Assembly: GCA_965209085.1 (NCBI GenBank)
Contig: OZ242376.1
Coordinates: 1,120,001-1,184,000, forward strand
Direction of reading: 5' to 3'
DNA length: 64,000 bases
From: Nitrosopumilaceae archaeon
Lineage (GTDB): Archaea; Thermoproteota; Nitrososphaeria; Nitrososphaerales; Nitrosopumilaceae
Shown here: positions 43,842 to 63,653 of the stretch, piece after piece
Layout: each line of letters opens with the position of its first letter
Position numbering within the stretch: the first letter of the stretch is position 1
Program-made: the position numbers and the translations under genes
Notes under the pieces: model-generated
The model's database searches: none
Seen by the model: the letters and a program-made list of their open reading frames with translations, nothing else
What the model was told of the DNA's origin: nothing

Positions 43842-44918
43842 TCATCCACCGCATTTCTCACGCAATACATCCCTTGCCTTTTGCAACGCCTCATCATTTG
43901 GAGTAATCTTCAAAGCCATATCTGCACATTCAAGTGCCTTATCATTCATCCCAAGTTTTACATAACAAAATGATTTCTCACTCCATGCTGCAGCGTAATC
44001 TGGTTTGACTTTTAATACAGCATTATACGCATCTAATGCCTCATGATACTGTCCCATACGGGATAACGCATTTGATTTACCATGCAGTGCAAGCATATTT
44101 GTAGAATCCGTCTGCAGCACCACATTAAAGCACTCTAGTGCTTTTTTATAATTTCCATAGTGTGCTAGAACATTTCCCCTGCTTGCCAAAGCATTTGTGA
44201 AACTTGAATCAATCTCCAATGCCCGCTCATAGCAGGATAATGCCTGCTCGAATTCACCCATGCTGTAGTGTATGTCGCCTTTGGCGTGAATTTCAGCTGG
44301 ATTATTAGGTGCCATTTTCATTGCCAAATTATTGTATTTTATCGCATTTTCATGATCACCTGATCTTAGATATATCTGCGAGATAAACTCTAGTGCATCA
44401 AGATTATCCGGCGAACATTTTAGAATTTTTTGTACAGCATTTATGCTCTCCTTTGGCCTATCTAGCATATCTAACGCATATGCTTTGTTAAAAAGTGCCA
44501 TAACACTTTCAGGTTTTAATTTCAACTCCATCTCAGAGTATTCAATTGTTTTCTCATAATGCCCCAAATTCCGGCAGATTGTGGCAATTGAATGCATAAT
44601 GGCAGGATCCGGCCTTGTGGACAATGTTTTTTTATAAATCTCCAATGCCTCCTCAAAGTGCTCGCCCACAAGCAATATCGTGGCCTTGTTGCAAAGGGCC
44701 TCAAAACTATTCGGATCTATTTTTAGCGCATCATTTACGTATTTTAAGGCGTTTGTACTCTGTCCAATCTTATGGTATGCCGTAGAGGCGTTTATCAGTA
44801 CGGCAATGTTGTTTTTTTCAACCTCTAGTATTTTCTCATAGTATTCTATGGCCTTTTCATAATTGCCAGATAAAGCGTGATCATATGCTAAATCAATCCA
44901 TTCTTCCATCTCGCTCAT
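43842..44918 (-). CDS. Tetratricopeptide repeat protein (about 10 TPRs)
   Basis: 34-aa periodic G....A...Y..AL...P pattern along the whole length; ATGA overlap with the upstream ATPase gene. Confidence 0.9.
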   Translation of the reverse strand: MSEMEEWIDLAYDHALSGNYEKAIEYYEKILEVEKNNIAVLINASTAYHKIGQSTNALKYVNDALKIDPNSFEALCNKATILLVGEHFEEALEIYKKTLSTRPDPAIMHSIATICRNLGHYEKTIEYSEMELKLKPESVMALFNKAYALDMLDRPKESINAVQKILKCSPDNLDALEFISQIYLRSGDHENAIKYNNLAMKMAPNNPAEIHAKGDIHYSMGEFEQALSCYERALEIDSSFTNALASRGNVLAHYGNYKKALECFNVVLQTDSTNMLALHGKSNALSRMGQYHEALDAYNAVLKVKPDYAAAWSEKSFCYVKLGMNDKALECADMALKITPNDEALQKARDVLREKCGG

Positions 44919-47900
44919 GAATCATCACCTTTTAGATCCTCGCTCTTTGAGGCTGATTGTCCATGCTGTTTATTTGGGGATGCTTTGGGTTTATAGTCAT
45001 CGGGTAAATCCACTACAAACGTGCGTACCTTGTCATACCCATCATCCAATTCCTCGCGTATTTCCTCAATTTTCTTACTAGAAGACCAGACATGGCACAT
45101 ATCAAAACCAAGTTTTATCCATTTGCTCATGTTAAATTTGACGTGCTCTGGATGCGATTTAACCTCGGTCTTTGATTCAATCTCAACTGATACGGACAAA
45201 CCAGTTGAATAATCATATGCTACAAGGTCTGGCCTTAAATCCCCGCTTTGTATTGCAAAGCATACAAACCATCCTTTTTTTCTATAGTAATCGACTGCCT
45301 GCTGCGCTATAAGCGGCGTCTCCTCGGACCTGCCAATCAGATAATAATTCAAATCAATGTACGCATCAAGTGCTCTTTTACTTAGAGAATATATGGGACT
45401 GCGCTTTACCTTTGGGTTTGGCATCTTTTGCACATACTCTAAATCATTTAAAGATGCCAAGGATGCAGATACATCATCGCGTGTGGATGCATTTACACCC
45501 CGGGTTATCTCAATTAGAATGTGGGGTCCATCTTGCAGATACAGGATTATCCTCCATTCCATTTCATACGGTAATGTTTGTGTGCAAGATTCCATCCATT
45601 TTTTGGTGCTGCGGGCCATTTCATCAGAGTTTGATGAATCTTGTATATCCTCAGGCTTTATTCCATATCTCTCCTTTGATGTTGTAATTATCTGCTGCAC
45701 CTGCATATCGTCAAGTTTGGGAATGGGGGGAGGCAGGGAATTTGTATAAGCTGGCATTCCAGATTCGTGTCCATCCGGCGCTTTTTGCCGTATGAAAAAC
45801 GCATGATCTGCCAATCCTGCAAGTGAATCGCGAAGTTTTTCAGAGTATGCTGGATCCACCATTAGTGCAATTTTGGATGCATCAAAGCCGGATAATCTGC
45901 CAAATATCATAGTAGAGCAATTCCCCATTATTCCCTCTAGTATTTTTCTCTCAATTTGTGAGGCATTCTGGTGTGCCAATATGAGGCCAAGTCCGTACCC
46001 TCTTGCCTGTGCAAGCAAAGTTCCGATAAGACCCATGTGCCCTATGCGCTGAAACTCATCAAGTGCCAAAACTACCGGAGTACGCTTGGTTCTGTCAGTT
46101 TCTGCAGCCCGTTTTTTTACAGCATGCCAGATTTTTGAAACAAGGGACATTAGTAAGATCTTGTGTGCATCCTCGGGAGTATCAGTGTCACTTATGCGGA
46201 TTAAAACCACAGTGCCGGGTTTTAATATTTGGCTGAATTTTACCGTCGTTTTTCTAACTCCAAAATGGCGGCGCAGATATTTATCAATTACAAACGGCTC
46301 TACGCGGTTTAGTATCGGAGTCCATGCATCAAATCTCAAGGATGCAGCTGACTCTAATGCCTGGATGAATTCTTTATTTGGAATGCGGTATTGGCGTTTT
46401 ATGCGCTCCAGTGCCCCGTTTTTTTTAAACAACATTACAAGATTATGCAAATCAGCCATGGTTGGAGAGTCTATGTTGTGGTATAAGAGCTGCAAGACCA
46501 GCTTGAAGAGCCGCTCCATTTGCACAAATGTCTGCGTTTGAGAGTAAAATTCCTTGAACATTTCAAGTATATGATCCACCATGAAGGAGACTGTTACGTC
46601 TCTTTCACCGTTTTTGTGCTCTGGGAGCTCTAGCAGATTTATTCCAAAATCCGTCTTTTTTATGTCCAAAAGGACTACATTTATGCCAGGCGGGGTGCAT
46701 TTTATAAATTCAAACGTGTCATCATCTTTGTTATCTATGCCGATATACGTGCACGGCATATCTGATGCAATTGATGCTATGATATGCGAGTAGAGGTTTA
46801 AGAGCAGTGTTGTTTTACCGCATCCAGATGATCCTAGAACGTACGTATGCCGGATTAGATCCTGAGGATCATATACTGTAACTTTGGATGTGGCTTTGAG
46901 TATTTGCCCGTATTGTACATTTTCTGCATTTATTTTCTTGTCAGTTCCTAAAATCCAGCCGCTGCGTTCAGGCGTGAGTGACTCATGATGCGGCCTGTTG
47001 TATCTTAACGGGAGTGCCTCATCGTATGGCATGTGGCATACAGTGTCTGTTAACTCTTTGGCAGTAACGCAAAAGAACGGAACCATGTCGCGGCCTCTGC
47101 CCCATTTTCCATCTTGCCATATTTTCTCATTGCGATATAGTTGGTTTATTGCCTCATCATCATATAGGATTCTAGACTTTAGATACTGTTCAAAATATTG
47201 GTGGCTCGGATACTGCATTAGGATGCCGCTATCCTGTTTTGAGCGCAGCTGTTTAGCTAGGCTTTGCATGATTTTCAGGTTTGCATCATACTCGTCTGCT
47301 TCAAAGATTCCGCGTATTCCCATTACGCAAAGATTCTCCTGTTCTCTTTGGATGTAATCCGGATATGCTATGCGCATGAATTCGGGTATTTTTTTATCGC
47401 TTGGGATTTTCACCTGGCGGTAGTTTGGTTTGAAATTAGAGCCCAAAGATCCCTGCAATTCAACCTTATCTTTTGTAATGTCAGTTATTGCATCCTGTAG
47501 TGCACTCAAATGCCTGCTGCATGCAGTATCAATTCTCTCATCGCGTACAAATAAAATCTGAATCCATGCATAGTTCATCTTTGAGATAGCCGAGATGATT
47601 GACTCTAGAAAATCAGTACTGTCATCACGCATGGGTGAAAAACTAAACATGTGTGAGAGCTCTATATCAAATGGTATTGTTTTTTTAGGTTTGCCTGCAG
47701 GTTCTGTCTGCTCTAGTATTTCATAATTTACAACGTTTAGCGAATTTGCGAAAAATTTCATATCGCCTTTAGGAGCTCCCAAGATTATACGCACTTGCTC
47801 AGATTGTGGCTCTTTCCATAATTCATATGCCCTTATTCTGTCAGTTACGATAGTTCTAGTTGGCTCTAATTTTTTACCAAATGTCGGATAAGCTTCTGCC

Positions 47901-48073
47901 AATTGTATTTCATATGCTGTGTGATTTGGAGGTTTTCTCATATTGTGCATGCCGCCGCCAAAAAAGTCAGGATCTAGTACTTTGATGGTTTTGCCGTTTT
48001 CTTTGATTTTTATCCATTTTTCAATTTGTACTAATCTGCCCAGCCAGTCTCTTTTGTATTGATGCCAAATCAC
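44915..48073 (-). CDS. HerA/VirD4(TraD)-like P-loop ATPase with C-terminal wHTH and PD-(D/E)xK-like domain
   Basis: HTYVLGSSGCGKTT (Walker A), VVLALDEFQ (Walker B), LAQARGYGLGLILAHQ (Arg finger/sensor); C-terminal RPDLVAYD...SVEIESK. Confidence 0.8.
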   Translation of the reverse strand: MIWHQYKRDWLGRLVQIEKWIKIKENGKTIKVLDPDFFGGGMHNMRKPPNHTAYEIQLAEAYPTFGKKLEPTRTIVTDRIRAYELWKEPQSEQVRIILGAPKGDMKFFANSLNVVNYEILEQTEPAGKPKKTIPFDIELSHMFSFSPMRDDSTDFLESIISAISKMNYAWIQILFVRDERIDTACSRHLSALQDAITDITKDKVELQGSLGSNFKPNYRQVKIPSDKKIPEFMRIAYPDYIQREQENLCVMGIRGIFEADEYDANLKIMQSLAKQLRSKQDSGILMQYPSHQYFEQYLKSRILYDDEAINQLYRNEKIWQDGKWGRGRDMVPFFCVTAKELTDTVCHMPYDEALPLRYNRPHHESLTPERSGWILGTDKKINAENVQYGQILKATSKVTVYDPQDLIRHTYVLGSSGCGKTTLLLNLYSHIIASIASDMPCTYIGIDNKDDDTFEFIKCTPPGINVVLLDIKKTDFGINLLELPEHKNGERDVTVSFMVDHILEMFKEFYSQTQTFVQMERLFKLVLQLLYHNIDSPTMADLHNLVMLFKKNGALERIKRQYRIPNKEFIQALESAASLRFDAWTPILNRVEPFVIDKYLRRHFGVRKTTVKFSQILKPGTVVLIRISDTDTPEDAHKILLMSLVSKIWHAVKKRAAETDRTKRTPVVLALDEFQRIGHMGLIGTLLAQARGYGLGLILAHQNASQIERKILEGIMGNCSTMIFGRLSGFDASKIALMVDPAYSEKLRDSLAGLADHAFFIRQKAPDGHESGMPAYTNSLPPPIPKLDDMQVQQIITTSKERYGIKPEDIQDSSNSDEMARSTKKWMESCTQTLPYEMEWRIILYLQDGPHILIEITRGVNASTRDDVSASLASLNDLEYVQKMPNPKVKRSPIYSLSKRALDAYIDLNYYLIGRSEETPLIAQQAVDYYRKKGWFVCFAIQSGDLRPDLVAYDYSTGLSVSVEIESKTEVKSHPEHVKFNMSKWIKLGFDMCHVWSSSKKIEEIREELDDGYDKVRTFVVDLPDDYKPKASPNKQHGQSASKSEDLKGDDS

Positions 48074-48326
48074 GCATTATAATGCACTTTGTAATAAAAA
48101 AGGTTATTGATCATTTAAGCGGTAATTATACATAAAGTATGCCTATTAATGCAAAAATTATACAGATATGTACGTGTAAGATGAAAATATGACACTGGGT
48201 CTATTTTAGTATAAAATATTCTTTTAAAAATCATATGAATATCATGATCGTATTAGATCATAAATATGAGATTAAAATTTTAAGTTCAGCATAATTTTTA
48301 AAATTTTGATAAAAATACAATAATTG

Positions 48327-48575
48327 GTACCTGTCTAGAGTTTTGAAGTTAAATTGGATAGATATTCTTCCAAATAATCATGAAAGTTCAGATTCCTCAA
48401 CCTGCACGTCCCCTTTATGCTCATCAATATCATGTGAGCTTTGGCTCCATCCTCTGAGCGGTGAGCATTTGTAATCTTGCGTATTACGACATTTGGTCAA
48501 ATCCCCTCTCTCGGCGGTATTGTTGTGTCAGTCAGTACCCGTTTTTTAGAAACGTAAAGGGCACATCTTTTTCTC
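48327..48575 (-). mobile_element. IS66-family 3' remnant (subtype 2)
   Basis: Minus-strand fragments NNTAERG and VVIRKITNAHRSEDGAKAHMILMSIKGTCRLRNLNFHDYL; terminus begins GTA. Confidence 0.65.
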
Positions 48576-48946
48576 GCACGTCCGATTTGCATCAGAGAGT
48601 AATATTTCTGAATTTTACCAACGTCTTGCAAAAAAAAGAGGATCATCCAAGGCCAAAGTTACAGCAGCTGCCAAGATGCTTGATATCATATTTCGTATGC
48701 TAAAGGATAGGAGTGAATTTGAAATACATCATAGTTAAAGCAACAAACCGCGGGTTAGACTTTGGGGATGTTACCCCGGCTGCATAACTGCGGTAAGCTT
48801 TAACATGTGGATAAAGATGGTTGTTGAATTAAATCCCGAATGGATAGATGTTTTTTCATCTTTTGGTTGGAAACAGACACATAGCGAAAGCCATGCCGCA
48901 TGACACAAAAAAGCAAGAAACCCTTAAAATGTATTCACATGGATAA
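48576..48946 (+). mobile_element. IS110-family 3' remnant (copy A) with its non-coding right end
   Basis: HVRFASESNISEFYQRLAKKRGSSKAKVTAAAKMLDIIFRMLK is homologous to the C-terminus of the 52320 transposase; it ends in CACATGGATAA like copy B. Confidence 0.8.
48739..48943 (+). ncRNA. Predicted IS110 bridge/seek RNA (copy A)
   Basis: Stem CCGCGG/CTGCGG with two 10-nt loop strands around a GGGG/CCCC hairpin, followed by a second loop with ATGGTTGT and ATGGATA. The scaffold is shared with copy B. Boundaries are approximate. Confidence 0.65.
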
Positions 48947-49009
48947 GGTCTAATGATTTCACACCATTGAATCATTTTCAAACAAATAAACCTCGATTAT
49001 ATGTAAAAA

Positions 49010-49657
49010 TCAATCTTTGGGAATTATTGCATTTTTTATATCTGTGTCTACCTTATCTTTATTACTCACAATAATTTGTCTACAAATTGGTCCGGAAGTC
49101 CATGCGTCTCGAACTTCACGGTTCTCTTGATATATTTTAGCAATGTTATTAATTTGTTCATTAGTAAAATAAGAACAATCACTCAAAAATTTTGCATTAG
49201 CATTTGCTTCCCTATAACTTGTCGACGTTTTGAGTGTTTTTATCTGTTCATCTAATGCCAATACACCGTCATTTACATATCGTATCAATCCATGACTTAG
49301 TTCATTAATTTCGGAATTTTTTATTTCAGGAGATATTATTTTAGCATGATATTGTCGCATAAATCCATATGGTTCCAGGTCATCAATACGAACAGTATAA
49401 ATTCTCTTATTATTTGCTATGGCATATCCAACTTCATGATCAGTGTATTCTGCACTACGAAAATTATTTGATAGTAAAACCATAAATAATTCACATTTTT
49501 CTATTTGTGCTTTTAATTCATTTAACCAAATATCTGATATGATTAGATCCTTGGAAGATATGAAAACGTCTATGTTTTGTTCGCTGAGTTTATCGTGAAG
49601 TGTATTGGCCACTTCTTTATCCTTATCTGCATAACTAAGAAATACACTGACCATCAT
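49010..49657 (-). CDS. TIR-domain protein with a helical C-terminal domain
   Basis: VFLSY.DKD, VFIS, W..E..IEKCELFMVLLS.NF..AEYTDHEVGYA, with the catalytic Glu retained. The ATG at 49657 is preferred over the TTG at 49702. Confidence 0.88.
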   Translation of the reverse strand: MMVSVFLSYADKDKEVANTLHDKLSEQNIDVFISSKDLIISDIWLNELKAQIEKCELFMVLLSNNFRSAEYTDHEVGYAIANNKRIYTVRIDDLEPYGFMRQYHAKIISPEIKNSEINELSHGLIRYVNDGVLALDEQIKTLKTSTSYREANANAKFLSDCSYFTNEQINNIAKIYQENREVRDAWTSGPICRQIIVSNKDKVDTDIKNAIIPKD

Positions 49658-49733
49658 AATTTGTATTAAATTATATGATATGTAAGTATAGTGATACGCC
49701 AAAGTTCATGAGCGTTTGACCGTTTATGTATAC

Positions 49734-50992
49734 TAGATGTCTTACGTAATAAAAAATTCGGCATAACAATATATTGTGCCTAATAATTAAAGTGTTATGT
49801 TAAAAAATCACATTCTGGAATATGATTTACAGTTAATCTAAGACAATACGCCACATGTCAATTATGTGATCACCGTTTGCAGTAATTCATGTTGGAACAA
49901 TGTAGGTTTGCAAACCCACGCGACAACATGTACATCTGGTCAATATCGGGCGTGCAGTATGATGTTATAATGAGCGTGCCCACTCATTTTTGTAATTTAT
50001 TAATCCGTTTACAACCTGCACGATTCCATCATATTTATCAAATCGTGATCGGAATACATCTCGGCGTATGTTGAATTTCTTAATTCTGCTGTAAACATGT
50101 TCTATCCGTACACGTACGCTTGAGAGTAATTTATTGTGAAATATTTGTTCGCGGGTTCTCTTTTTATTTTTATATTTTTTACAGGGTATGATCGAATTTG
50201 CTTGTGGAAACGCGTCATGTATTCCCTGATATGCACTATCATAGAGATTTGAAACAGAATTCAACAGATCCTGCGTAATTTTGTTTTCACACTGCAGTGG
50301 GTGGTTCTCTTTTACAATGGCATAATCGTGTACACTGCCAGGATATGACATTGAGCTATACAAGATCATTCCGTTTCCGTTTATGACTTCTGTTGTTTTT
50401 CTGGTATGTGTTTTGTGCTTGCCAGAATAGTTTTTCTTTTGTTCTTCCTTGTCACTTGGACGCCATACCCGTTGTTCGGTAGCATCTGTAACGCAATAAT
50501 TGTCAGGAAAATTCTTTTCAAGATCTTTGGAAGATTTTATTTCTAAAACTTGTTTGTGTAGTTTATGTGGAGTTGGAAGAATATCTGCCAATATCTTTAG
50601 AATCATGCCTATGTTTCGTTGTACATTACTTTGATCCAAGTCAAACATGTATCCTATTTTTTCATACGACTGGTATTCTCGTAAATAAACAAGCGTCATT
50701 ATTAACCGATCTGGCAGTGACAAGTGATGTTTCCTGCCTCCTCCTGGACTTCGTTGTCTTTCTGCTGCATCTGCAACATCCAGCTGGCATTCAAGATATT
50801 TTTTACGTATGCCAGGAATCAAGGAATCAAATTCTTCGACCGTAAGACCGGTAAACGCCTTGAATGCACGCGGTTTTTTGCGCATTGTCGTTTCTGAGAA
50901 CACAAAACACAGTAAACATGCATGAAAATAGATCGATGTGATCTAAAAGTTTGGACTGCATGATTGAATTTCTTTATTACGCAAGGCATCTA
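49734..50992 (-). mobile_element. IS5-family (ISL2-like) element, apparently intact
   Basis: TIRs TAGATGTCTTACGTAATAAA and TAGATGCCTTGCGTAATAAA bracket a full transposase gene. Confidence 0.88.
49965..50903 (-). CDS. IS5-family DDE transposase
   Basis: FTGLTVEEF, GGGRK and an HTH, then DATEQ, YSGKHKTH, GSVHD, DSAYQG and RVRIEH. Confidence 0.9.
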   Translation of the reverse strand: MFSETTMRKKPRAFKAFTGLTVEEFDSLIPGIRKKYLECQLDVADAAERQRSPGGGRKHHLSLPDRLIMTLVYLREYQSYEKIGYMFDLDQSNVQRNIGMILKILADILPTPHKLHKQVLEIKSSKDLEKNFPDNYCVTDATEQRVWRPSDKEEQKKNYSGKHKTHTRKTTEVINGNGMILYSSMSYPGSVHDYAIVKENHPLQCENKITQDLLNSVSNLYDSAYQGIHDAFPQANSIIPCKKYKNKKRTREQIFHNKLLSSVRVRIEHVYSRIKKFNIRRDVFRSRFDKYDGIVQVVNGLINYKNEWARSL

Positions 50993-50993
50993 C

Positions 50994-52111
50994 TATACTG
51001 ACACGCAAAAGTAACTGCAATTTATGACTCTAGGCACAATGTAACCGCAAGATATTTGGATCACCTCGTGTATGAATCAATCATGAACAAAGAACATCAG
51101 GAACTGTATAATGCAAGCAGGCATGTCAAAGATGTACGAGAAAACGAAAAAATACATTTTGTAAGCATGGTCAAATACCAAAACATATCCATAGCTAAAG
51201 CTTCTGAATTATTGATGAAAAGCTACAACTGGGGCAAAGAATGCATGCAACGATATGACGAGCTTGGATTAGACGGTCTTAAAATCCTGCCCAAATCGGG
51301 CAGGCCTTTATTATTATCAAATATACGATTTAAAAAAATTATTGACATGACAAGACGAGAGAACGGTTCAGTTGATCCAAAACAGGTAATGCACAACATT
51401 AAACGCAAAACCGGAGTAAAATATCACATATCAAATATCAAATATCAGAAAAAGACTCCACAAATTCTCATGTCAGCAAGGCTCCAAAAAGAATTCATGT
51501 CAATGCAGCGCCAGCATCAGTCTGCTACAACGGGTCACAAAACACTAGGCGTCAAATACGCCTACTTGAAGAGCGTGGATTTGCAGTAGGCGTTCAGGAT
51601 GAATGTATAATAAAATACGATTCATTATCCGGCAAGAAACTCTGGATTGAAATAAGCAAAAATTGTTACGTAAAATCCACAGGTTCTCACAAAAAAGTTG
51701 TTGTCTTTGGAGTACTCTTATAGGATGGCAGGCAGATGTTTGCAAGCTTTGATTTGTTTGATGCAAAACCATTTCTCAAATTTTTAAAAATGGCTCATCA
51801 AAAATTTGGAAAAATTTGCATGATTGTGAATAAAGCTGCACAACACAGAAAATCCAAAATTATTAAAAAATATATCTCCGAGCACAAAGATGAGGTAAAG
51901 CTTTTGTTTTTCCCAAGTTTACCGTTTCTGAGTGCCGTTGAAGAATGCTGGCATCAGGCCAAACGTGTGTTGGTCGTCTCTGAATATTATGAAACATTTG
52001 AGAATATGAAATACGCAATTTCAGAATATTTTAGAACTGTACGATTCAAAGTATCAATCATGGATTTTATTATGAGAAAAGCTGCAGAATGCAGTTACTT
52101 TTGATCCGCAG
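50994..52111 (+). mobile_element. Decayed IS630-family element
   Basis: HTH ORF at 51056 (GLDGLKILPKSGRP) and DDE fragments (VQDEC; MIVNKAAQH with D>N; PFLSAVEECW); inverted repeat CAAAAGTAACTGCA at both ends. Confidence 0.8.
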
Positions 52112-52114
52112 TTA

Positions 52115-52319
52115 TCCATGTGCCTCTTTTTTAAGTATTTCATGCGTTTTTCCATATTTTTGTACAGTATCCACTAGGGGCTATTTTTCCAATTAAAGAA
52201 TGAGAGACATATATCCATTCGGGGCATTATCCCCACAACCATCTTCATCCACTTGTTAGAGCTTACCGCAGTTAGAATCTCGGAGCACTATCTCCATATA
52301 CTGCGCCGCGGCCGTGCAA
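52115..52319 (-). ncRNA. Predicted IS110 bridge/seek RNA (copy B)
   Basis: Loop 1 is CCGCGG-CGCAGTATAT-GGAG/CTCC-GAGATTCTAA-CTGCGG. Loop 2 is AGATGGTTGT-GGGG/CCCC-GAATGGATAT, which matches the donor junction ATGGATAACCAT. Confidence 0.75.
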
Positions 52320-53441
52320 CTAACTGTAATTTTGTTCAAAATCCCGATTCTCCTTTAGCAACCAGTAAATCACCTTTAGCATTTTTCCAGCTGCTGCAAC
52401 TGCAGCCTTAGAGTTTCCTCTCTTTCTTGCAAGCCGCTTGTAAAATATTGAAATGTCACTTTTTGGTGCATGCAGTACGTGCGAGCGTATTGCCTCAACT
52501 AGAACCCACCTGAGCATTCTGCTTCCTCTTTTTGTTATGTGTCCATGATGTACGAGATTGGCAGAATTGCGGACCGATGGTGCAAGTCCTGCGTATGATT
52601 TTAGCTTTTCAGGATCAGAGAATCTCTCAACATTATCAATCTCAGATGCAATCGTTAATGCCGTAAAATCTGCAATTCCGGGGACAGTTTTGAGTATATC
52701 GGCATACCGGCTTGTACGTGCACTCTTGTAGATCAGTACATTGGCTTTTTGTATCTGATTGTCATAAAGGCCAACGGATGCAAGAAAACCGTCTATTCGA
52801 TAGTCGTTTATGGCTTAAAGGCTTGCAATGTATTTGTACGAAAACGTACGTCCTGGAATTTTAATTCCTTTTTGGAGCAGTATTCCATGTATGGAATTTT
52901 TCATATTTGTTCTCGCCTGTACAAGTTTGTGCCTGTATCGGACCAGTTGTCTTTGCTCTACAATCTTTTTACCTGGAACATGGCACTCGTTGATATATCC
53001 TCCTCGCAGCAAATTTGCCAAAATTTGCGCATCAACTTTGTCTGTTTTTTTAGTGGATGCGGCAATGGCCTTTGTCTGATATGGGTTTGAGAGAATCACA
53101 TCAAGATTTAGTCTATCGGTCATGTATCGGAACAGTCCGTACCAGACAGATGATGACTCCATTACCATCTTTGAACCCTCTGGTATGCTTGTTTGGAAAA
53201 ACTTTCTAATGTCCGCGTGTCTGTTTTCAACACGCGTGTTTAAGATCAGTTTGCCTTTGCCGTCAATTGCTGCTATCTGGAGAAATTCTTTATGGGCGTC
53301 AATTCCAACAAACATGGATTTCCTATTAAATGCCCTAGTGTTTTTGTTTGCATTTTGGGCTTTGTTTTTGGGCTTGCGTTTGTTGACTAATACGGATTTA
53401 TCATTTAAGCAACCATCTGAATTCCTTGATTTCTTGGGCAC
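52320..53441 (-). pseudogene. IS110 recombinase interrupted by one in-frame TAA at 52815
   Basis: GIDAHK, MESS and KTDKVDA (DEDD); the same frame continues after the stop with TVPGI, YAGLAPSVRNSA, GHITKRGS and AAAGKML. Confidence 0.88.
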
Positions 53442-53687
53442 ATATGGTTAGGTATGCTACGTTGACATTTTAGTATTATTGCTATTGCATTAATTTCATT
53501 AATCATACCAGGCACACATTTAGCATATGTGTTTTATTCAGAATCAGATGATCTATACAATGGTGATCAATACAATACAGATCAGTTTAAAGATAAATTA
53601 TTAGCATTAGGCACATTTTTGCCATTTCTCAGAAATGATATTTTTCAAGTTGAATTAACATACGGTTATGATGCAGTGGGATTTTAT

Positions 53688-53929
53688 GTAAATGGCTAAT
53701 CCTACAAACCCCTCTCAGAGGATTTTAACCAATTCTGTGTGCGGATTGATACCCCTCATACGCATGGTCTCATAAAAGGCCAGAATAACACCAAACCTTC
53801 TCATGCCTTTTGCATTTTTCAGTCTTCCCTATTCCTTGCGGTACGGTGCGACAGGACATATTGCACGCTCGGCTGCATTGTTTGTCGGTGCCATTCCAGG
53901 ATGCTACAAAAACGTAAACAAATTGGGTG
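53688..53929 (-). mobile_element. IS66-family right-end remnant (subtype 1)
   Basis: GTAAATGGCTAATCC terminus; DNA homologous to 42800-42945 and 61870-62114. Confidence 0.75.
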
Positions 53930-54379
53930 GGAGGGATCAAAGCTAATTTGTCCTAACTGACTTGGTTTCCATGGCTTTACCCTTTGATTTTTTGCTTTCA
54001 TTATAATCGAGGTTAACATTTGGTGTGATCTGGCAAGATTTCCTCGTCGTTTGTGCTTTGTTGATTTCATTAAATTGACTCTGATCTACTGATTCAAAGC
54101 TTTTTCGGTCATTTACGTTCATGATCTAAAAGCTTTATGGTATGTTTTTGATTTTACTCATGGACAGAGCTACGTTCTGCCTAAATCATAAATTGAAGTT
54201 ATTTTTGCGCGTTAGTAAAGTTTGCCCGCAAATCAAATAGCACGTTTTTGTGCACACGGCCACGTATAATATTCTGTTTTTTGCCATGTATGTGACATTT
54301 TGATTTATTTTGTTGTCTGTTTGAGAACATTATTCACTATGCGTTTTGATCATGACAACACCATAATCAAAATTGTATG

Positions 54380-56056
54380 TCACTGTGATTGATTATGCAT
54401 AAACTCTAATGGCATTATGAAACTGGTTCTTGTTGGAATATTTAATTTCAGAATATTCCATTTTTTCCAATCATCTAAATATGCACGTTGTAGGATAAGA
54501 GCTTGTTGTTTAACGTTGATGGCAATTGTATAATTAATATTACAGTCTAGCGCTTTATCAAAACAATTAATTGCATCATTAAAATTTAATTTTAATATAG
54601 AAAATAATCCTTTTTCTGTATATAATTGTGGATCACTTGGATTAATTTTAATCGCTGAATCATAAAATTTTAATGTATTTACATCATCATTCATTTGCAT
54701 ATACATTCTAGCTATTCCAATATAAGCATGTGATTGGTTTGGATTAATTTCTAAAACTTTTTTATGAAAATTGATTGCATTTTCAAATTCCATGATCCTA
54801 GATAATGCCATTGCATGCAGCATATATGCCTCCTCATATTTTGGATCTAGTTTTACCATTAATTTACAATATTTTATAACATCATGAAATTTATTTTGTC
54901 GATATAAAATATTACATTTTCCTGCATACGCAAATATTTCATTAGGATCTAACTTTAAAGCCTCATCGTAACATGCTAATGATGCATCGAATTCTTTGTG
55001 ATTTAGTAATAATGTGCCTTTTGCAATATGTGCTATTATGTAAGTTGGTTCTAAGTGGATTATTTTATCATAACATTCTAAAGATTCTTCTTTACGATTA
55101 AGTTGTTTTAAAGCTCGTGCTTTTCTTATATATGCAAATATGTATGTTGCATCTAATTCTATAGCTTTATCATAACATGCTAGTGATTCATCAAATTTAT
55201 TCATAGCTTGTAATGCATCTCCTTGATACACATACGCGTCTATTATCGATGAATCCATATCTATTATATTTGTGAAACATGTGTACGCCTCGGAATAATT
55301 TAATAAATCGTATAATGCATTTCCTTTATGCATATATGAAGATATGTCATTAGGTTTTAATTCTAACGATTTATCATAATACATTATAGCTATAGAATAT
55401 TTTTTATTTTTATAATATTCATTACCTTTTATTCTACATTTGTTATTATCTTTCATCATGTTAACTTCCTTCATAATAGATTCTAATACATCCTGTGGCT
55501 CTTTTAGATTTTGTGTTGTTTTAATATCTAATACATCTGATTTTATATTTTCAATACCAGACATCATATTAACTATTATTTCCTTATTATTATTATAATT
55601 ATAATGTGATGCCATAGAATATGATGCAGATTCAGGATTTTTTTCAGCATAAATTATATGATCTTTCAATAATTGTTTTTCGTTAACAAATGATTCTGAA
55701 TCCATATCTATAGATATTATTCTTATAGTTGTTATGTCAAATGGAATATTGGTCGACATATTTTTTCTTTTAACAATTATTGTTGGTTTAATTTGTGCAT
55801 GCCTAAGCCCTAATTCATACATGACATTAGGATTATTTCCCGAAATATCTGCAATAACTATATCTGACATGACTAATTTTTCCATAATTTGGTTTGGTAA
55901 CGATCCCGGTTGATTTATTTTATCAGATCTTAACACAACATCATAATTTAATTCTTGTAAAACTGGAGAAAATATTTTATTAAATATTATATCGGATGTT
56001 ATACGAATATTACTTTCTTCTTTATCTAACGGTGATATGACGAAACAAGATTTCAA
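54380..56056 (-). CDS. Nucleoside 2-deoxyribosyltransferase-like (NDT) domain plus coiled coil plus about 9 TPRs
   Basis: KSCFVISP, RSD and SDIVIADISGNNPNVMYELGLRHA...PFDI are typical of NDT-like effector domains; TPR periodicity starts at about aa 205. Confidence 0.82.
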   Translation of the reverse strand: MKSCFVISPLDKEESNIRITSDIIFNKIFSPVLQELNYDVVLRSDKINQPGSLPNQIMEKLVMSDIVIADISGNNPNVMYELGLRHAQIKPTIIVKRKNMSTNIPFDITTIRIISIDMDSESFVNEKQLLKDHIIYAEKNPESASYSMASHYNYNNNKEIIVNMMSGIENIKSDVLDIKTTQNLKEPQDVLESIMKEVNMMKDNNKCRIKGNEYYKNKKYSIAIMYYDKSLELKPNDISSYMHKGNALYDLLNYSEAYTCFTNIIDMDSSIIDAYVYQGDALQAMNKFDESLACYDKAIELDATYIFAYIRKARALKQLNRKEESLECYDKIIHLEPTYIIAHIAKGTLLLNHKEFDASLACYDEALKLDPNEIFAYAGKCNILYRQNKFHDVIKYCKLMVKLDPKYEEAYMLHAMALSRIMEFENAINFHKKVLEINPNQSHAYIGIARMYMQMNDDVNTLKFYDSAIKINPSDPQLYTEKGLFSILKLNFNDAINCFDKALDCNINYTIAINVKQQALILQRAYLDDWKKWNILKLNIPTRTSFIMPLEFMHNQSQ

Positions 56057-56464: not shown

Positions 56465-57310
56465 TTACCAATCATACTTACCTTTTCTATTTTCAAATTT
56501 ATCAATACTAAATTCTATTTCTGAAAAAGCTTTAGACACACCAACCTGCAGTATTGGAGAGCTGTACATATACATGCCACCAACATTACTAAAAAACCGT
56601 CCATTTGGATCGATCATTATATATGATTCAGTCATAGCATCATTATCTTCAGAGATAATTTGAAGTTGATCATTTTCCAGGCATTTATTTTTTGTAACAA
56701 AACTCTGGAATTTCTCAGAACTGACAAGTAATTTTTCAATTTTGCCGTCATTTTGGCCTTTTATTGGAAGTGCCTGAAATATCTTCCAACGTTTTGGATG
56801 AATTATTTTAATCAATTCTCTGAAATCTTCATTATAATTCCAATCAGTAACCACCGTGTTTAGTTTTACTTTAATCCCCATTTTGTGACATTTTTTAACT
56901 AGATGTATCGATTTTTTAATATAATCTCCTTTTCCACGACCTAATTTCTGCTGTACATCTTCATGGGTTGAATCTATACTAAAAGCAACCCAATCAAGGT
57001 ATTTGCCATAATTTTCCAATAATTTTTCAAGATGAGCACCATTAGTAACCAAACATGTAATCATACCAAGTTGCTTTGCATGAACTATTACATCACCAAG
57101 ATTTTTGAATAGAGTTGGCTCTCCACCTACGAAAGTAATTTTTTCAGTTCCAGCCATGTGCAATTGTGTTAAAATTTGTTGAATTTGATCTAAATTGAGT
57201 GGTATTCGGATGAGTTCATCATTAAATGTTGCAAAGCAATATTCACAGTGTTCATTACATATTTTGATTAAATGAAAATTTACTGAAAGTGGGATATTGG
57301 ATTTAAGCAA
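56465..57310 (-). CDS. Prokaryotic viperin (radical SAM, RSAD2-like antiviral enzyme)
   Basis: SVNFH, CNEHCEYCF (Cx3Cx2C), KITFVGGEP, VTNG, SIDS, KLNTVV, RWKIFQ.L..GQN, M.ESYIMIDP.GRF and the terminal R.G.Y.W characteristic of viperins. Confidence 0.92.
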   Translation of the reverse strand: MLKSNIPLSVNFHLIKICNEHCEYCFATFNDELIRIPLNLDQIQQILTQLHMAGTEKITFVGGEPTLFKNLGDVIVHAKQLGMITCLVTNGAHLEKLLENYGKYLDWVAFSIDSTHEDVQQKLGRGKGDYIKKSIHLVKKCHKMGIKVKLNTVVTDWNYNEDFRELIKIIHPKRWKIFQALPIKGQNDGKIEKLLVSSEKFQSFVTKNKCLENDQLQIISEDNDAMTESYIMIDPNGRFFSNVGGMYMYSSPILQVGVSKAFSEIEFSIDKFENRKGKYDW

Positions 57311-57728
57311 GATTTTTCAGATCCTTTAATTTTTTTAGATCATAAGTTGCAATATTCTCTTGTTTGGAAGCCTTTAGCATATTATTATCAAATGTTACAA
57401 TAGTTGATTCATGAAATTTGGCTGCAGCTAGTATAAGACTATCTGGATAATGGCATATTTCATATTTGGATTCAATGATCTTGGCATATTTCTCCATTGT
57501 TTCGTTTGTTTGAAAAACTGATACTGAAGATCCAAAAAATATTACTTTTTCCACAATGTCAGTATATGATATGTTTTTCTTTTTTTTAGACCAATACACC
57601 TTTTTCACTTCTCCTAGAACAGTATCCATTAAAATGATTGTAGAATATCCACTATTGAATAATAAAGGAATATTCTTGGGGTTGAAACGAAGAACCTGGA
57701 TTACTATACACGAGTCTAAGACTATCAT
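57303..57728 (-). CDS. PIN-domain (VapC-like) nuclease
   Basis: IVLDSC, VLGEV, YPDSLILAAA and IVTFD acidic tetrad; overlaps the viperin start by 8 nt. Confidence 0.88.
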   Translation of the reverse strand: MIVLDSCIVIQVLRFNPKNIPLLFNSGYSTIILMDTVLGEVKKVYWSKKKKNISYTDIVEKVIFFGSSVSVFQTNETMEKYAKIIESKYEICHYPDSLILAAAKFHESTIVTFDNNMLKASKQENIATYDLKKLKDLKNLA

Positions 57729-59614: not shown

Positions 59615-59635
59615 ATATCCATAGGGATTATTTAT

Positions 59636-60522
59636 TAGATGCCTTGCGTAATAAAGAAATTCGATCATGCAGTCCAAACTTTTAGATCACATCGATCTAT
59701 TTTCATGCATGTTTACGGTGTTTTATATTCTCAGAAACGATAATGCGCAAAAAACCACGTGCATTCAAGGCGTTTACCGTTCTTACGGTCGAAGAATTTG
59801 ATTCCTTGATTCCGGGCATACGTAAAAAATATCTTGAATGTCAGCTGGATGTTGCAGATACAGCAGAAAGACAACAAAGTCCAGGAGAGGCATGAAACAT
59901 CACTTGTCACTGCCAGATCGGTTAATAATGACGCTTGTTTATTTACGAGAATACCAGTCGTATGAAAAAATAGGATACATGTTTGACTTGGATCAAAGTA
60001 ATGTACAACGAAACATAGGCATGATTCTAAAGATATTGGCAGATATTCTTCCAACTCCACATAACCTACACAAACAAGTTTTAGAAATAAAATCTTCCAA
60101 AGATCTTGAAAAGAATTTTCCCGACAATTATTGCGTTACAGATGCTACCGAACAACGGGTATGGCGTCCAAGTGACAAGGATGAGTAAAAGAAAAACTAT
60201 TCTGGCAAGCACAAAACACATACTAGAAAAACAACAGAAGTCATAAACGGAAACGGAATGATCTTGTATAGCTCAACGTCATATCCTGGCAGTGTACACG
60301 ATTATGCCATTGTAAAAGAGAACCACCCACTGCAGTGTGAAAACAAAATTACGCAGGATCTGTTGAATTCTGTTTCAAATTTCTATGATAGCACATATCA
60401 TGGAATACATGACGCATTTCCACAAGCAAATTCGATCATATCCTGCAAAAAATATAAAAACAAAAAGAGAACCCATGAACAAATATTTCACAATAAATTA
60501 CTCTCAAGCGTACGTGTGCAGA
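59636..60522 (+). mobile_element. Degenerate, 3'-truncated second copy of the IS5-family element
   Basis: Same left TIR and near-identical DNA to 50992-50105; frameshifts and a stop at 60186; cut by the IS630 at 60523. Confidence 0.88.
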
Positions 60523-61744
60523 TATAGTATAAGAATTTATAATTTACATTTTATCACAAACACACCGAATACAATCTCCATAGTAACAATTACCCCACAT
60601 TATTGTTTCTAAAAAATTAGATAATCGTGCAGTTTGACAAGTTTCATCTGATTAGACAATATGACCCGGTCAATTTTCTTTTTCAGATGTCTGATCGATT
60701 CAAAATGCCCATTTGATATGCATTTTCGTAAAACACGCCACTGGATTTCTATTGGGTTCAGCTCTGGCGTATACGGTGGAAGATAAATTAAACTGATTCG
60801 TCCTTTTCTAGATTTGATGTATTCAAATACGTCACGGTGGCGATGATAAGATGCATTATCATGCACTATTGTCACACGGCCAAACTCTTTTTCCAGGATT
60901 TTTATAAAATCCAAATGACTGTCTTTGTTTGCTTTATCGTAAAACTCGAATATGAAAGAATCCTTGCTTAAAGCTCCAAACATGGTTATTCTGTGTCTGG
61001 TCGGATCTAATGGAACTTGGGGTTTGCTGCCTATGAGGTACCATGCGTTACGGATATTGGTTGTTGGGTAAAGATGAATCTCATCCATGGATACAGTTAC
61101 TGCTCCGTGTGCCTCTCTTTGTGCCAATATGTGCCTAGTTTTTTTTTAAAGCGTTCCTGTTCACTCTTTGATGCAGCTTTGGGATGGTACTGACGGGGTT
61201 TTTGAATTGTAAATCCAAGACGTTTGAGTAAATTTTGTACAGAACGTGGGACATATTGTACCTTGAATTTTTTCCAAATGTGATCCGTTACCATTACAGT
61301 AGACCATGCGGACTGACTATATCCGCATTTTTCAGGTCCGGCAATCAGATCCTTTGTTAGTTTTTCAAGCTGTTTTTCTGAAAGATGGCATTCCCTGCCA
61401 AGACGTTTTATGTTGTATCTTGAGGCTAGTCCATCCTCCATTACCCGTATGAGCCATTTGCATACTGTTGTCTCTTTTACGCCAAGCTCCTCGCCAATCT
61501 TCTCCATTGTTTTGTCCTGTTTTCTTTTAATCCATGAGAGAATACGCTGTTTTGCAACTGGAATCTTTTCTTTTGCATAACAATTTCTAAGATATGTGAT
61601 GCTCATGTTTGGCATGAACTTGATGCCTGCCGGAATTCTGTTCTGTCGCGTCATATTTGCTCTTAAATCTGGTGCGATCTAAACGTAGCGATTAAATTTT
61701 TGTTACAGAGTGGTTAAACGTAATTAATAACTTCTTATACTATA
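60523..61744 (-). mobile_element. IS630-family element, apparently intact
   Basis: TIRs TATAGTATAAGAATTTATAATTTAC and TATAGTATAAGAAGTTATTAATTAC with terminal TA; two overlapping ORFs. Confidence 0.9.
60609..61654 (-). CDS. IS630 transposase, orfA (61097-61654) and orfB (60609-61127) joined by a probable -1 frameshift
   Basis: HTH and winged-helix orfA; DDE orfB (MDE, HDNASYH, LPPYTPELNPIE); slippery TTT AAA AAA AAA C at about 61138-61150. Confidence 0.88.
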
Positions 61745-62114
61745 TTTTGATGCAAAAGCTAGGAAAAAAGCAAAACCGGAAGAATGTGATCTGCCGGTAC
61801 AGGATGTCTTGACAATCGCAGAATCCTACAAAAATGCCGGAAAACAGTTTGGAGTAAAACTTGCCAATGCCACACCCAATTTGTTTACGTTCTTGCAGCA
61901 TCCTGGAATGGCACCGACAAACAATGCCGCCGAGCGTGCAATACGTCCTGTCGCACCGTACCGCAAGGAAAAGGGAGGGCTGAAAAACGCAAAAGGCATG
62001 AGAAGGCTTGGTGTCATTCTGACCTTTTATGAGACCACGCGTATGAGGGGTATCAATCCGCACACAGAATTGGTTAAAATCCTCTGAGAGAGGTTTGGAG
62101 GGTTAGTCATTTAC
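61745..62114 (+). mobile_element. IS66-family 3' remnant (subtype 1)
   Basis: LFTFLQHPGMAPTNNAAERAIRPV..RK..GG is the IS66 transposase C-terminus; it ends in CATTTAC. Confidence 0.8.
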
Positions 62115-63653
62115 CGCCCTTACATACCAATCCTTTATAATACTAGTCGCCACACAATCGTCTTTGTTATAATCAATCACTCTATCAAGTAGTTCTTTGT
62201 GTGTCTCTGGATCATGTGCGTATTGGAGGTATAGATCAATCGATGACATAGCACCTACATCTGTATGTTTCCACTGGTAGCCCATCCATTTGGCTATTGG
62301 TTTAAGACCAGTACCTGGAATTGGAAAAATGTATGAAGAGGTTACTATTGGATGTAGATCATAGAGAATATCCTTTGAAAGAACAAGTTGTTGATCATCA
62401 CTAGATATATCATATTTTTCCATCATTTTGACCATATGTGTTTTTTCATAAGGTGCCCAATGATATAACACATAGTCTTTCTGCGTTCCCAGAAACTCTA
62501 CAAATTCTTTTACCATGTCTTCCTCCGAATCAATATTTTTTGCTACAAATGAGACATATTCCTCCTTGCCATCTTTGCGTATTATAGCACCAATCAAATA
62601 GTCTGTCATGTCTAATTCGTGTGCAGTTTGAGTTGCAAAATCAATGCCTTCTAAATCAAAGAATATTTCCGTAGTCTTCTCTGACAAGGGTTTAGGGGGT
62701 TTGATTTGTACCACTTTATTTTTCAAGATAGCATTTGCATGATGCGTCATTTTGTTTGCATTTATCGCCCCTATTCCATCAATATTCATAAGATTCTGTT
62801 TGCCCGTATTAACAACATCATCAAGTTTTTGGTATCCTGCTTCAACGAGTTTATTTTTCATTTTTAATCCCACGCCATGAAGCAACGATACATCCCGTTC
62901 TTCCAATGCCATTTTGTTACAATAATCATTCCACGGGTACATACATGAACCAAATGTGGGCGATGGTCGCTCCCCATCTTTGATCTTGAACACGCCTTCT
63001 ATTTTATCAAATAACTCGCCCTCATATTCTGCAAATTTATACGGAATCTCATGCTTTTCCATGTTTATTAGATAAAACGTATCTGGAGTATAACCTTGTA
63101 TTTTACCGATTATGTGATTGTATAAAGCTGCCTGAAGTATGTGGCCTTTTTTGATATTTTTGGCAATTTTAATCTCTTTTATGGCATAGTGATGTTTTCC
63201 AAAGATGGATCTACCATCTTCTTTTACAATCTGATCTGCAGTGCCATAAAGTCCTTCAGGTAGGTAATATAATGGAGCATTTAGTATGGCCATAGTTTTA
63301 GATGCCATACTGTCTAGTACTTTACGAAATCCATCTTCAGGAGTATCAAATATCATTGGTTCAGAATTTGGAAATTCTTCTTGATTTACCTTTTCTTCAT
63401 GCTCGTTTCCCATCTTGCCGAGTTCAACAAGGTATGCGTCTGGGATTTTGTCCATTTCTGATCTATCTACAAAATTATTACAGTAAAGATAGAATGGTGC
63501 ATCTACGTATTGACGTATGTCCGTTGCGGTCAGCCTATGTTTTGTTTTATGATTCATGTATATCTCAAATAGATCTTCACAATTGACGCTTTTGGAATCC
63601 CTATTTGTTCTAGATTTGAATATATCCATTTTCAATATGGGCATATGAAACAT
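62103..63653 (-). CDS. TM0106-family RecB-like nuclease (PD-(D/E)xK plus HhH plus RNase H-like)
   Basis: GTADQI, KEIK...HILQAALY, HGVG/DGIG HhH motifs, FFDLE, YHW..YE, GLKPIA and YNKDDC. The real start may be the ATG at 63629. Confidence 0.85.
   Translation of the reverse strand: MFHMPILKMDIFKSRTNRDSKSVNCEDLFEIYMNHKTKHRLTATDIRQYVDAPFYLYCNNFVDRSEMDKIPDAYLVELGKMGNEHEEKVNQEEFPNSEPMIFDTPEDGFRKVLDSMASKTMAILNAPLYYLPEGLYGTADQIVKEDGRSIFGKHHYAIKEIKIAKNIKKGHILQAALYNHIIGKIQGYTPDTFYLINMEKHEIPYKFAEYEGELFDKIEGVFKIKDGERPSPTFGSCMYPWNDYCNKMALEERDVSLLHGVGLKMKNKLVEAGYQKLDDVVNTGKQNLMNIDGIGAINANKMTHHANAILKNKVVQIKPPKPLSEKTTEIFFDLEGIDFATQTAHELDMTDYLIGAIIRKDGKEEYVSFVAKNIDSEEDMVKEFVEFLGTQKDYVLYHWAPYEKTHMVKMMEKYDISSDDQQLVLSKDILYDLHPIVTSSYIFPIPGTGLKPIAKWMGYQWKHTDVGAMSSIDLYLQYAHDPETHKELLDRVIDYNKDDCVATSIIKDWYVRAVND

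Follow-up and report, generated by a model that had tools for sequence, protein, structure and literature searches.

Two IS110-type 3′ ends, A and B, lie in the window (the whole 64,000-nucleotide stretch of archaeal DNA that was analyzed) and raise the question of whether the target specificity of a guide RNA has been rewritten naturally within one genome. This was the inference of the original prediction, and the strings that it quoted were all found, in copy A at 48747–48954 of the plus strand and in copy B at 52312–52106 of the minus strand. We consider it very probable, judging from sequence, that A and B are sibling members of the IS1111 type of the IS110 family, each with a bridge (seek) RNA encoded downstream of its transposase and with retargeted loops (Table 1).

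Table 1. Window positions of copies A and B, of their predicted RNA elements and of neighboring genes
Feature	Position	Strand	Sequence or basis
Copy A, IS110-family, probably IS1111-type 3′ remnant	48577–48945	+	Match to full-length A copies begins at 48577
Copy A transposase remnant, final ∼54 codons	48577–48738	+	BLAST versus full-length A; stop TAA at 48736–48738
Copy A predicted target-binding loop	48747–48794	+	Consensus fold, pair counts
Copy A P1, 5′ and 3′ halves	48747–48753 and 48788–48794	+	
Copy A putative 5′ guide	48754–48763	+	GTTAGACTTT; reverse complement of right flank 48945–48954
Copy A hairpin P2	48764–48777	+	
Copy A putative 3′ guide	48778–48787	+	GGCTGCATAA; sense of left flank ATGCA-TA-A in other A copies
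Copy A predicted donor-binding loop	48809–48853	+	P3 halves 48809–48813 and 48849–48853
Copy A donor 5′ strand	48814–48823	+	AAGATGGTTG
Copy A hairpin P4	48824–48838	+	5′ half mutated in window copy
Copy A donor 3′ strand	48839–48848	+	AATGGATAGA
Copy A right end	48923–48945	+	Kept in all copies and relatives
Copy A A/T-rich box	48923–48929	+	CTTAAAA
Copy A terminus	48936–48943	+	CACATGGA; junction TA at 48944–48945
Copy A right target half	48946–48954	+	AGGTCTAAT; final 9 nt of MITE terminal inverted repeat
Copy B, full-length element	53448–52115	−	Boundaries set by four copies whose left flanks are unrelated and by uninterrupted IS630-like ends
Copy B left end	53448–53439	−	ACCATATGTG
Copy B right-end terminus	52122–52115	−	CACATGGA
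TA either side of copy B	53450–53449 and 52114–52113		
Copy B transposase gene	52320–53315	−	In-frame TAA at 52817–52815
Copy B predicted target-binding loop	52265–52312	−	P1 52312–52306; P1′ 52271–52265
Copy B putative 5′ guide	52305–52296	−	CGCAGTATAT
Copy B hairpin P2	52295–52282	−	
Copy B putative 3′ guide	52281–52272	−	GAGATTCTAA
Copy B predicted donor-binding loop	52205–52250	−	P3 52250–52246; P3′ 52209–52205
Copy B donor 5′ strand	52245–52236	−	AAGATGGTTG
Copy B hairpin P4	52235–52220	−	
Copy B donor 3′ strand	52219–52210	−	AATGGATATA
IS630-like element (outer end is the B target)	50994–52112		∼1.12 kb; DDE_3; inverted termini TACTG...; TA flanks
TraG/TraD-like coupling protein	44915–48073		
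TIR-domain protein	49010–49702		
DDE_Tnp_4 IS	49965–50903		Inverted twin at 59633–60524
TPR protein	54380–56056		
Radical SAM protein	56465–57310		Overlaps PIN-domain gene 57303–57728
Second IS630-like element	60609–61654		
RNase_H_2/DUF2779 protein	62103–63653		

The protein family is defined by the intact A transposase, whose features were taken from a copy elsewhere in the genome and not from the remnant in the window. This protein matches PF01548 (DEDD_Tnp_IS110; 98.1 bits) and PF02371 (Transposase_20; 77.3 bits), both over the cut-off, and scores 219.2 bits (cut-off 140) over residues 2–324 against the NCBIfam model NF033542, “IS110 family RNA-guided transposase.” It aligned to the transposases of ISCro4 and IS621 with the serine motif in register. 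The ISCro4 alignment pairs GLAPSVRNSA with GLTPRRYESG around the catalytic serine (G-L-x-P-x4-S, as the motif is defined in the available text of PMC11187229), and the RuvC-like acidic positions GMDVHK, ME, and KTDKRDA with GIDVSK, ME, and KTDAVDA. The IS1111-type placement holds for every feature tested, a set of comparisons that lies outside the transposase of IS1111 itself. A scan of named genome records with the A transposase returned a single locus, in a Nitrosopumilus MAG. The archaeal origin of the genome agrees with its rRNA genes, for which the full-length archaeal SSU and LSU models outscore the other models of their clans.

Across the genome (1.69 Mb, one contig), A is represented by ∼16 right ends and 12 left ends and B by four copies, with additional fragments of the elements. 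The A and B proteins are 60% identical, and the element DNA is ∼65% identical. The transposase frame is open in two of the seven full-length A copies, and the premature stop of the B transposase is identical in all four B copies. The translation of copy A in the window ends in ...MLKDRSEFEIHHS*, as in intact A copies. Its left end is lost, as the original prediction had cautioned: in BLAST comparisons the homology to full-length A begins at 48577, and the DNA upstream belongs to a different repeat family.

The repeat that cuts copy A (48461–48577) has six further genome copies at 92–94% identity. In a number of further A copies, a truncation or interruption lies only a few bases from this point (query 1141–1148), a possible hot spot of some other element. 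The fourth B copy is broken by a ∼1.1-kb TA-flanked element (genome positions 731144–732258, outside the window) with ∼7 genome copies, and transposons are nested three deep at this site.

The region downstream of the transposase folds into a conserved structure. We aligned 18 distinct versions from this genome, a sister species, and the Nitrosopumilus MAG, and the consensus fold comprises four helices: within P1 lie two 10-nt strands separated by hairpin P2, and P3 is arranged likewise around P4. Pairing is found in 94.7% of the cells of the four helices, compared with 39–49% when the partners are slid by 1–3 columns. Compensatory changes occur at three pairs, including the GGGG/CCCC versus GGAG/CTCC hairpin that had been described as covarying; it is a true compensatory pair (alignment column 29–39, GC in 10 sequences and AU in 6). 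The anchor TAACTGCGGTAAGCT occurs exactly twice in the window, at 48785 (plus) and 52274 (minus), against a shuffle expectation of 0.10, and two occurrences were reached in 0 of 100 shuffles.

A and B agree at only 8 of 20 positions of their target-loop strands, in line with the rewriting that had been claimed, whereas the remainder of the RNA is identical at 70–73 of 88. The accompanying claim that scaffold and donor guides are both kept stands for the scaffold and fails for the donor loop at one base of its 3′ strand (GATAGA versus GATATA). A covariance model built from the alignment detected the RNA in 13 of 151 sampled genomes of the family, belonging to 7 of 27 genera. The 29 matches from other genomes were aligned, and their guides and junctions were extracted, with left junctions where findable. 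A scan of window positions 48000–54500 against Rfam 15 (E up to 1) gave no match at the RNA; the sole match in this interval is an unrelated, weak snoRNA elsewhere.

Filled and empty sites define the element as ACCATATGTG...CACATGGA, flanked by T-A at each end. For A, the empty site is the end of a MITE of ∼90 nt with ∼40 copies and inverted termini (ATTAGAC.../...GTCTAAT), many of which retain an uninterrupted site. Uninterrupted MITEs end in ...TTATGCATA(C/A)GGTCTA(A/T)T, and numerous such ends read TTATGCA-T(A/G)-(A/C)(G/A/C)(G/C)TCTA(A/T)T. The sequence ...ATGCA-TA precedes 11 of the 12 A left ends, a recognizable MITE body surrounds 8 of the 12, and the A right flanks are the remaining 9 nt of the same MITE terminal repeat. 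For B, all four right ends adjoin the same IS630-like terminus, which is uninterrupted in two copies of that element (N-TA-TACTGCGG). The genome-wide collection of copies that had been proposed as a check thus places A at the MITE repeat and B at the IS630-like terminus, with loops that fit their own targets.

The A copies occupy at least 12 different left contexts, and the four B left flanks are mutually unrelated, with the divergence starting exactly at TA. Both observations argue against a spread of the B copies and of flank-sharing A copies by segmental duplication or repeat recombination, in which case the copies would not be independent tests. Two A copies (genome positions 728433 and 959305) do have identical right flanks, and the region is dense in repeats, but we regard this explanation as very improbable.

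The junctions also locate the exchange point. The junction T is present in all 49 tabulated junction rows, and the left junction is invariably T-A-A. At the right junction, the base after T tracks the target (A, or G in relatives), and the next base is A, C, or T. Since the left T-A-A is constant and the right bases after T follow the target, exchange lies at T. The cut is probably placed 3′ of this T, by analogy with IS621, for which the available text describes top-strand cleavage on the 3′ side of a core T that hardly varies (PMC11208158). As ways round the register offset of A described below, we weighed an AA or AC core and a core moved 2 nt rightwards; both are contradicted by the junction bases, and the offset persists under other placements of the exchange point.

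Further features of the ends agree with an IS1111-type organization. The sub-terminal inverted repeats (left ACCATATGTGAA, right TTCACATGGA) are imperfect with a 2-nt indel, and agree with the 7–17 bp expected of IS1111-type elements. In copy B, ∼205 nt separate the stop codon from the right terminus, compared with ∼133 nt between the left end and the ATG.

A second copy of the donor-loop 5′ strand, CAGATGGTTG, is located ∼30 nt inside every A left end and inside that of B (53415–53405 in B). In the element of the Nitrosopumilus MAG (L022), this internal repeat is CAGACGGTAC and covaries with the start of the left end, which would allow a foldback within the left end (AACCATATGTG / CACAGATGGTT). 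All copies and relatives have an A/T-rich box, (T)TTAAAA, that stops ∼6–8 nt short of CACATGGA (52133–52127 of the minus strand in B). It looks like an outward archaeal TATA box, which would drive the transposase across joined ends, or the flank when integrated.

The organization of the RNA and the ends suggests the following mechanism. An RNA encoded downstream of the gene for a DEDD/serine recombinase would carry two internal loops. The donor loop would read the joined ends of the element itself, ...CACATGGA-T|A-ACCATATGTG..., which on the circle would be ...CACATGGA-TA-ACCATATG.... The 5′ strand of the target loop would pair with the top strand in the right half of the target, and the 3′ strand, which has the sense of the left half and ends in T-A-A, would pair with the bottom strand, with exchange at the invariant T. 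Scaffold and donor reading are kept in both families, and the target strands differ: A would be aimed at the MITE terminal inverted repeat (TGCA-TA-AGGTCTAAT and variants) and B at the outermost IS630-like bases, where the TA duplication of that element would form the junction (N-TA-TACTGCG). The RNA would presumably be made and loaded on the recombinase, and the guide pairings would drive insertion.

The right guides match the flanks of their own elements, and the original prediction had stated as much for both 5′ strands. The 5′ strand of A fits AAGGTCTAAT with eight Watson-Crick and two wobble pairs, and A variants fit at 8–9.5 of 10 positions, counting wobble. The 5′ strand of B, when reverse-complemented, gives ATATACTGCG, which in three of the four B copies is identical to the right junction (10 of 10 bases). 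In the window copy of B, the 5′ strand pairs with ACTGCG only (6 nt). Its right junction is one base short (GGATA-ACTGCGG versus GGATATACTGCGG in the three other B copies, at 52112/52113), and contigs from two public DNA runs carry the extra base at 52112. This one-base loss accounts for the short match and for part of the register discrepancy between A and B, which had been given as 3 nt and is 2 nt with intact junctions. Contigs of four DNA runs were examined over 48300–53800, where repeats prevent the reading of empty sites and circle junctions.

A sub-variant of A carries G for C at guide position 7, and the complementary flank, AAACTCTAAT, is found in all four of its copies. Flanks of the C-variant are either of a GGTCT type (6 of 10) or of a CTCT type (4 of 10), the latter being a better fit to the G-type guide. 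These misfits could reflect RNA of the other variant acting in trans. The contrast between guide variant and flank variant is suggestive and not significant alone (one-sided Fisher p ∼0.07). Two relatives, L053 and L058, differ in one guide base, with a matching flank base.

The left guides likewise correspond to their flanks. In all families, T-A-A closes the 3′ strand, and the preceding 4–5 bases have the sense of the left flank: TGCA in A and GGAAG, ACGCA, GGAAC, AGAA, and CATC in relatives, each at its own flank. The left half-site of A, TATGCATA, is palindromic, so that the strand read by the left guide cannot be told from A. The B left guide agrees with the four left flanks at 2–4 of 5 positions, with no consistent match beyond TA; agreement is confined to T-A and usually also the preceding C. 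This poor fit, which had been listed as a caveat, follows from the left target being whatever DNA adjoins the IS630-like element, because the DNA left of the IS630-like end differs at each site and leaves the guide without a consistent partner. The left half-site may be shrinkable to little beyond T-A.

To quantify these matches, we compared guides with their own and with permuted flanks, using 45 elements from 13 genomes that yielded 25 distinct right guides (first occurrence kept) and 17 distinct left guides. With kinship ignored, the first seven bases of the right guide match their own flank at 4.98 of 7 positions compared with 4.03 in permutations (0 of 50,000 as high), or at 3.30 compared with 2.34 (5 of 50,000) when only the commonest single register is used. 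The left guide, also with kinship ignored and in one fixed register, reaches 3.71 of 5 compared with 1.47 (0 of 50,000 as high). Because related copies are non-independent, these figures overstate the significance. On this scale the flanks of other copies do match their loop strands, on both strands of the loop, and natural target reprogramming within one genome is supported by sibling guides that match their own targets.

The same comparisons bear on whether the 3′ region acts as RNA at all. It might instead serve at the DNA level as an end bound by the recombinase, or be a 3′ untranslated region or terminator, with the protein picking the target and the loop matches arising as by-products, e.g. 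of captured target DNA. The two A loop strands together do resemble the MITE repeat with an inserted hairpin, which makes capture conceivable; the RNA is predicted from sequence, a search of the indexed RNA runs turned up none with this sequence, and the single-sequence folding z-scores are weak and not significant (−1.43 and −0.77). Against this reading, across 25 elements, guides that are unrelated in sequence fit the likewise unrelated flanks of their own elements, with strands and order as expected, single guide bases change together with flank bases (L053 versus L058, and the A variants), and the helices are maintained through compensatory changes. In addition, IS110-family members need such an RNA experimentally, as described in the available portions of PMC11187229 and PMC11208160. 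A purely DNA- or protein-based origin of the matches is therefore very unlikely.

A guide–target origin of the B match is also far preferable to the nearly negligible alternative that the IS630-like element repeatedly landed in the TA beside the B right end, since, although IS630-type elements duplicate TA and B ends at TA, the B guide matches seven bases inside the IS630-like terminus beyond the TA, the original right target of B would then lie past the far end of the IS630-like element, where three flanks are unrelated to each other and to the B guide, and some IS630-like copies lack B, but every B copy adjoins an IS630-like end.

The register of the right guide relative to the exchange point is not uniform. 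In the common register, the reverse complement of the right guide reads A-T followed by the flank; it holds for three of the four B copies and, among the 26 rows that derive from other genomes, for 18. A differs from this register, which is common to B, the sister-genome families, and L022: all A copies, as well as the relative L038, are offset by 2 nt into the flank, and the offset is 1 nt in L036 and 3 nt in L042. The flank fit is poor in five of the 26 rows, and relatives with a poor fit include L040, L044, L059, and L039. One fixed guide geometry fails to account for these offsets, and in this archaeal clade the register may vary from 0 to +3.

The relative L038 derives from another genus (genome G001), and its right flank, ACGGTCTAAT, is the same MITE-type terminus, combined with a different guide and the same +2 register. 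Because its flank and register resemble those of this genome, the MITE family and its IS110-type parasite appear to be shared across genera.

The donor loop matches the element ends. Its 5′ strand holds ATGGT, the complement of the left-end start ACCAT, and its 3′ strand holds ATGGAT, which corresponds to the final right-end bases followed by T. Both donor guides covary with the ends in relatives: the right end of family C from the sister genome is ...CATAGAT with the guide ATAGAT, and the left end of L022 is ACCGT with the guide ACGGT. The single base by which the 3′ strands of A and B differ (...GATAGA and ...GATATA) lies after GAT, where B has ATA, the start of its own right flank, and A has AGA. 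Across elements, the three bases after ...GAT equal the first three right-flank bases at 1.77 of 3 positions compared with 1.38 in permutations (22 of 50,000 as high, a generous figure given that the copies are related). This tendency of the donor 3′ tail to equal the right flank implies that the donor loop is not wholly untouched by retargeting.

Although its own transposase gene is interrupted, B may still have moved. The same stop in four copies with independent left flanks points to a spread of B after its own enzyme was lost. The ends of B are intact and the same as those of A, its donor loop and scaffold are nearly identical to those of A, its target loop is its own, and intact A transposase genes are present in the genome. 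These features would allow B to be moved by the A recombinase, and we tentatively put forward, as a possible but rather doubtful reading, that B is a non-autonomous passenger of its sibling that uses its own guide. In the available text of PMC11187229, the seekRNA is described as not rigorously confined to closely related transposases. Alternatively, the stop common to all B copies could result from gene conversion among the copies. If B is a passenger, it would represent a natural RNA-only element that re-aims the recombinase of another element.

A and B closely resemble the IS1111-type seekRNA elements ISEc11, ISPa11, and ISKpn4, as far as these are described in the available text of PMC11187229 (Siddiquee et al. 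2024). Common to both groups are a longer non-coding region downstream of the transposase gene, sub-terminal inverted repeats, targets within repeated sequences, and the same order of matches, with the top-strand match placed 5′ and the bottom-strand match 3′. According to the accessible part of PMC11208160, a bridge RNA could be predicted for 93% of the IS1111 elements in the catalogue. Siddiquee et al. also describe ISEc11 and ISXne4 as related IS1111-type elements that keep the stem and have been redirected naturally by replaced target-matching bases (PMC11187229, available text). Because this redirection is already published, the inference made here is not new in kind, and the mechanism itself is known.

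What is new is the host clade, and that one small genome contains both retargeted siblings and a single-base variant. In contrast to ISEc11-type elements, A and B reside in an archaeal (Nitrosopumilaceae-like) host, their right-guide register varies among relatives, the left half-site of B is essentially unconstrained, and they are characterized here by sequence alone. Also new is their targeting of the ends of other mobile elements, one such target being a transposon–flank junction. Known IS1111-type elements similarly occupy a fixed spot in a terminal or palindromic repeat of another repeated element, but the targets of A and B differ from those in being an archaeal MITE repeat and the very last IS630-like bases plus the TA duplication. 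A literature search combining IS110 with thaumarchaeal names gave, among the matches listed, none that mentions IS110 in the text available.

The comparison with IS621 (Durrant et al. 2024, PMC11208160; Hiraizumi et al. 2024, PMC11208158; PDB code 8WT6; the papers as far as available) reveals both shared and divergent features. Similar to IS621, A and B combine a DEDD plus serine recombinase with a putative bispecific RNA, whose target and donor loops each would read both DNA strands, and with an invariant exchange T. They also possess handshake-like guide bases, which match the partner DNA only once exchange has occurred: the last bases of the left target guide are A-A, the start of the left end, and the donor 3′ tail tends toward the right flank. 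Unlike in IS621, the RNA is located at the 3′ rather than the 5′ end, the order of strand matches is reversed, and the junction is (N)T-A and not CT. The A protein shows only weak similarity to the IS621 transposase, with an E value of 5.6e-06 and restricted to the C-terminal domain.

A and B would extend bridge/seek-RNA-guided transposition to ammonia-oxidizer-like archaea. They form a within-genome series with filled and empty sites that comprises the two siblings with their changed targets, a guide variant that differs in one base and follows a variant of the target, and a guide at a transposon–flank junction. This series provides sequences with which to ask what left-half pairing and which register an IS1111-type recombinase needs, and it bears on whether a guide-bearing element with a dead transposase borrows the enzyme of a relative.

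The surroundings of A and B are rich in other mobile DNA. With at least three other IS types, the segment 44915–63653 has the appearance of a mobile or defense island that has integrated. Positions 19400–42600 are occupied by a very large nested repeat array with periods of ∼162, 1113–1119, and 2217 nt and up to 33 copies, which presumably represents a giant repetitive gene or gene cluster.
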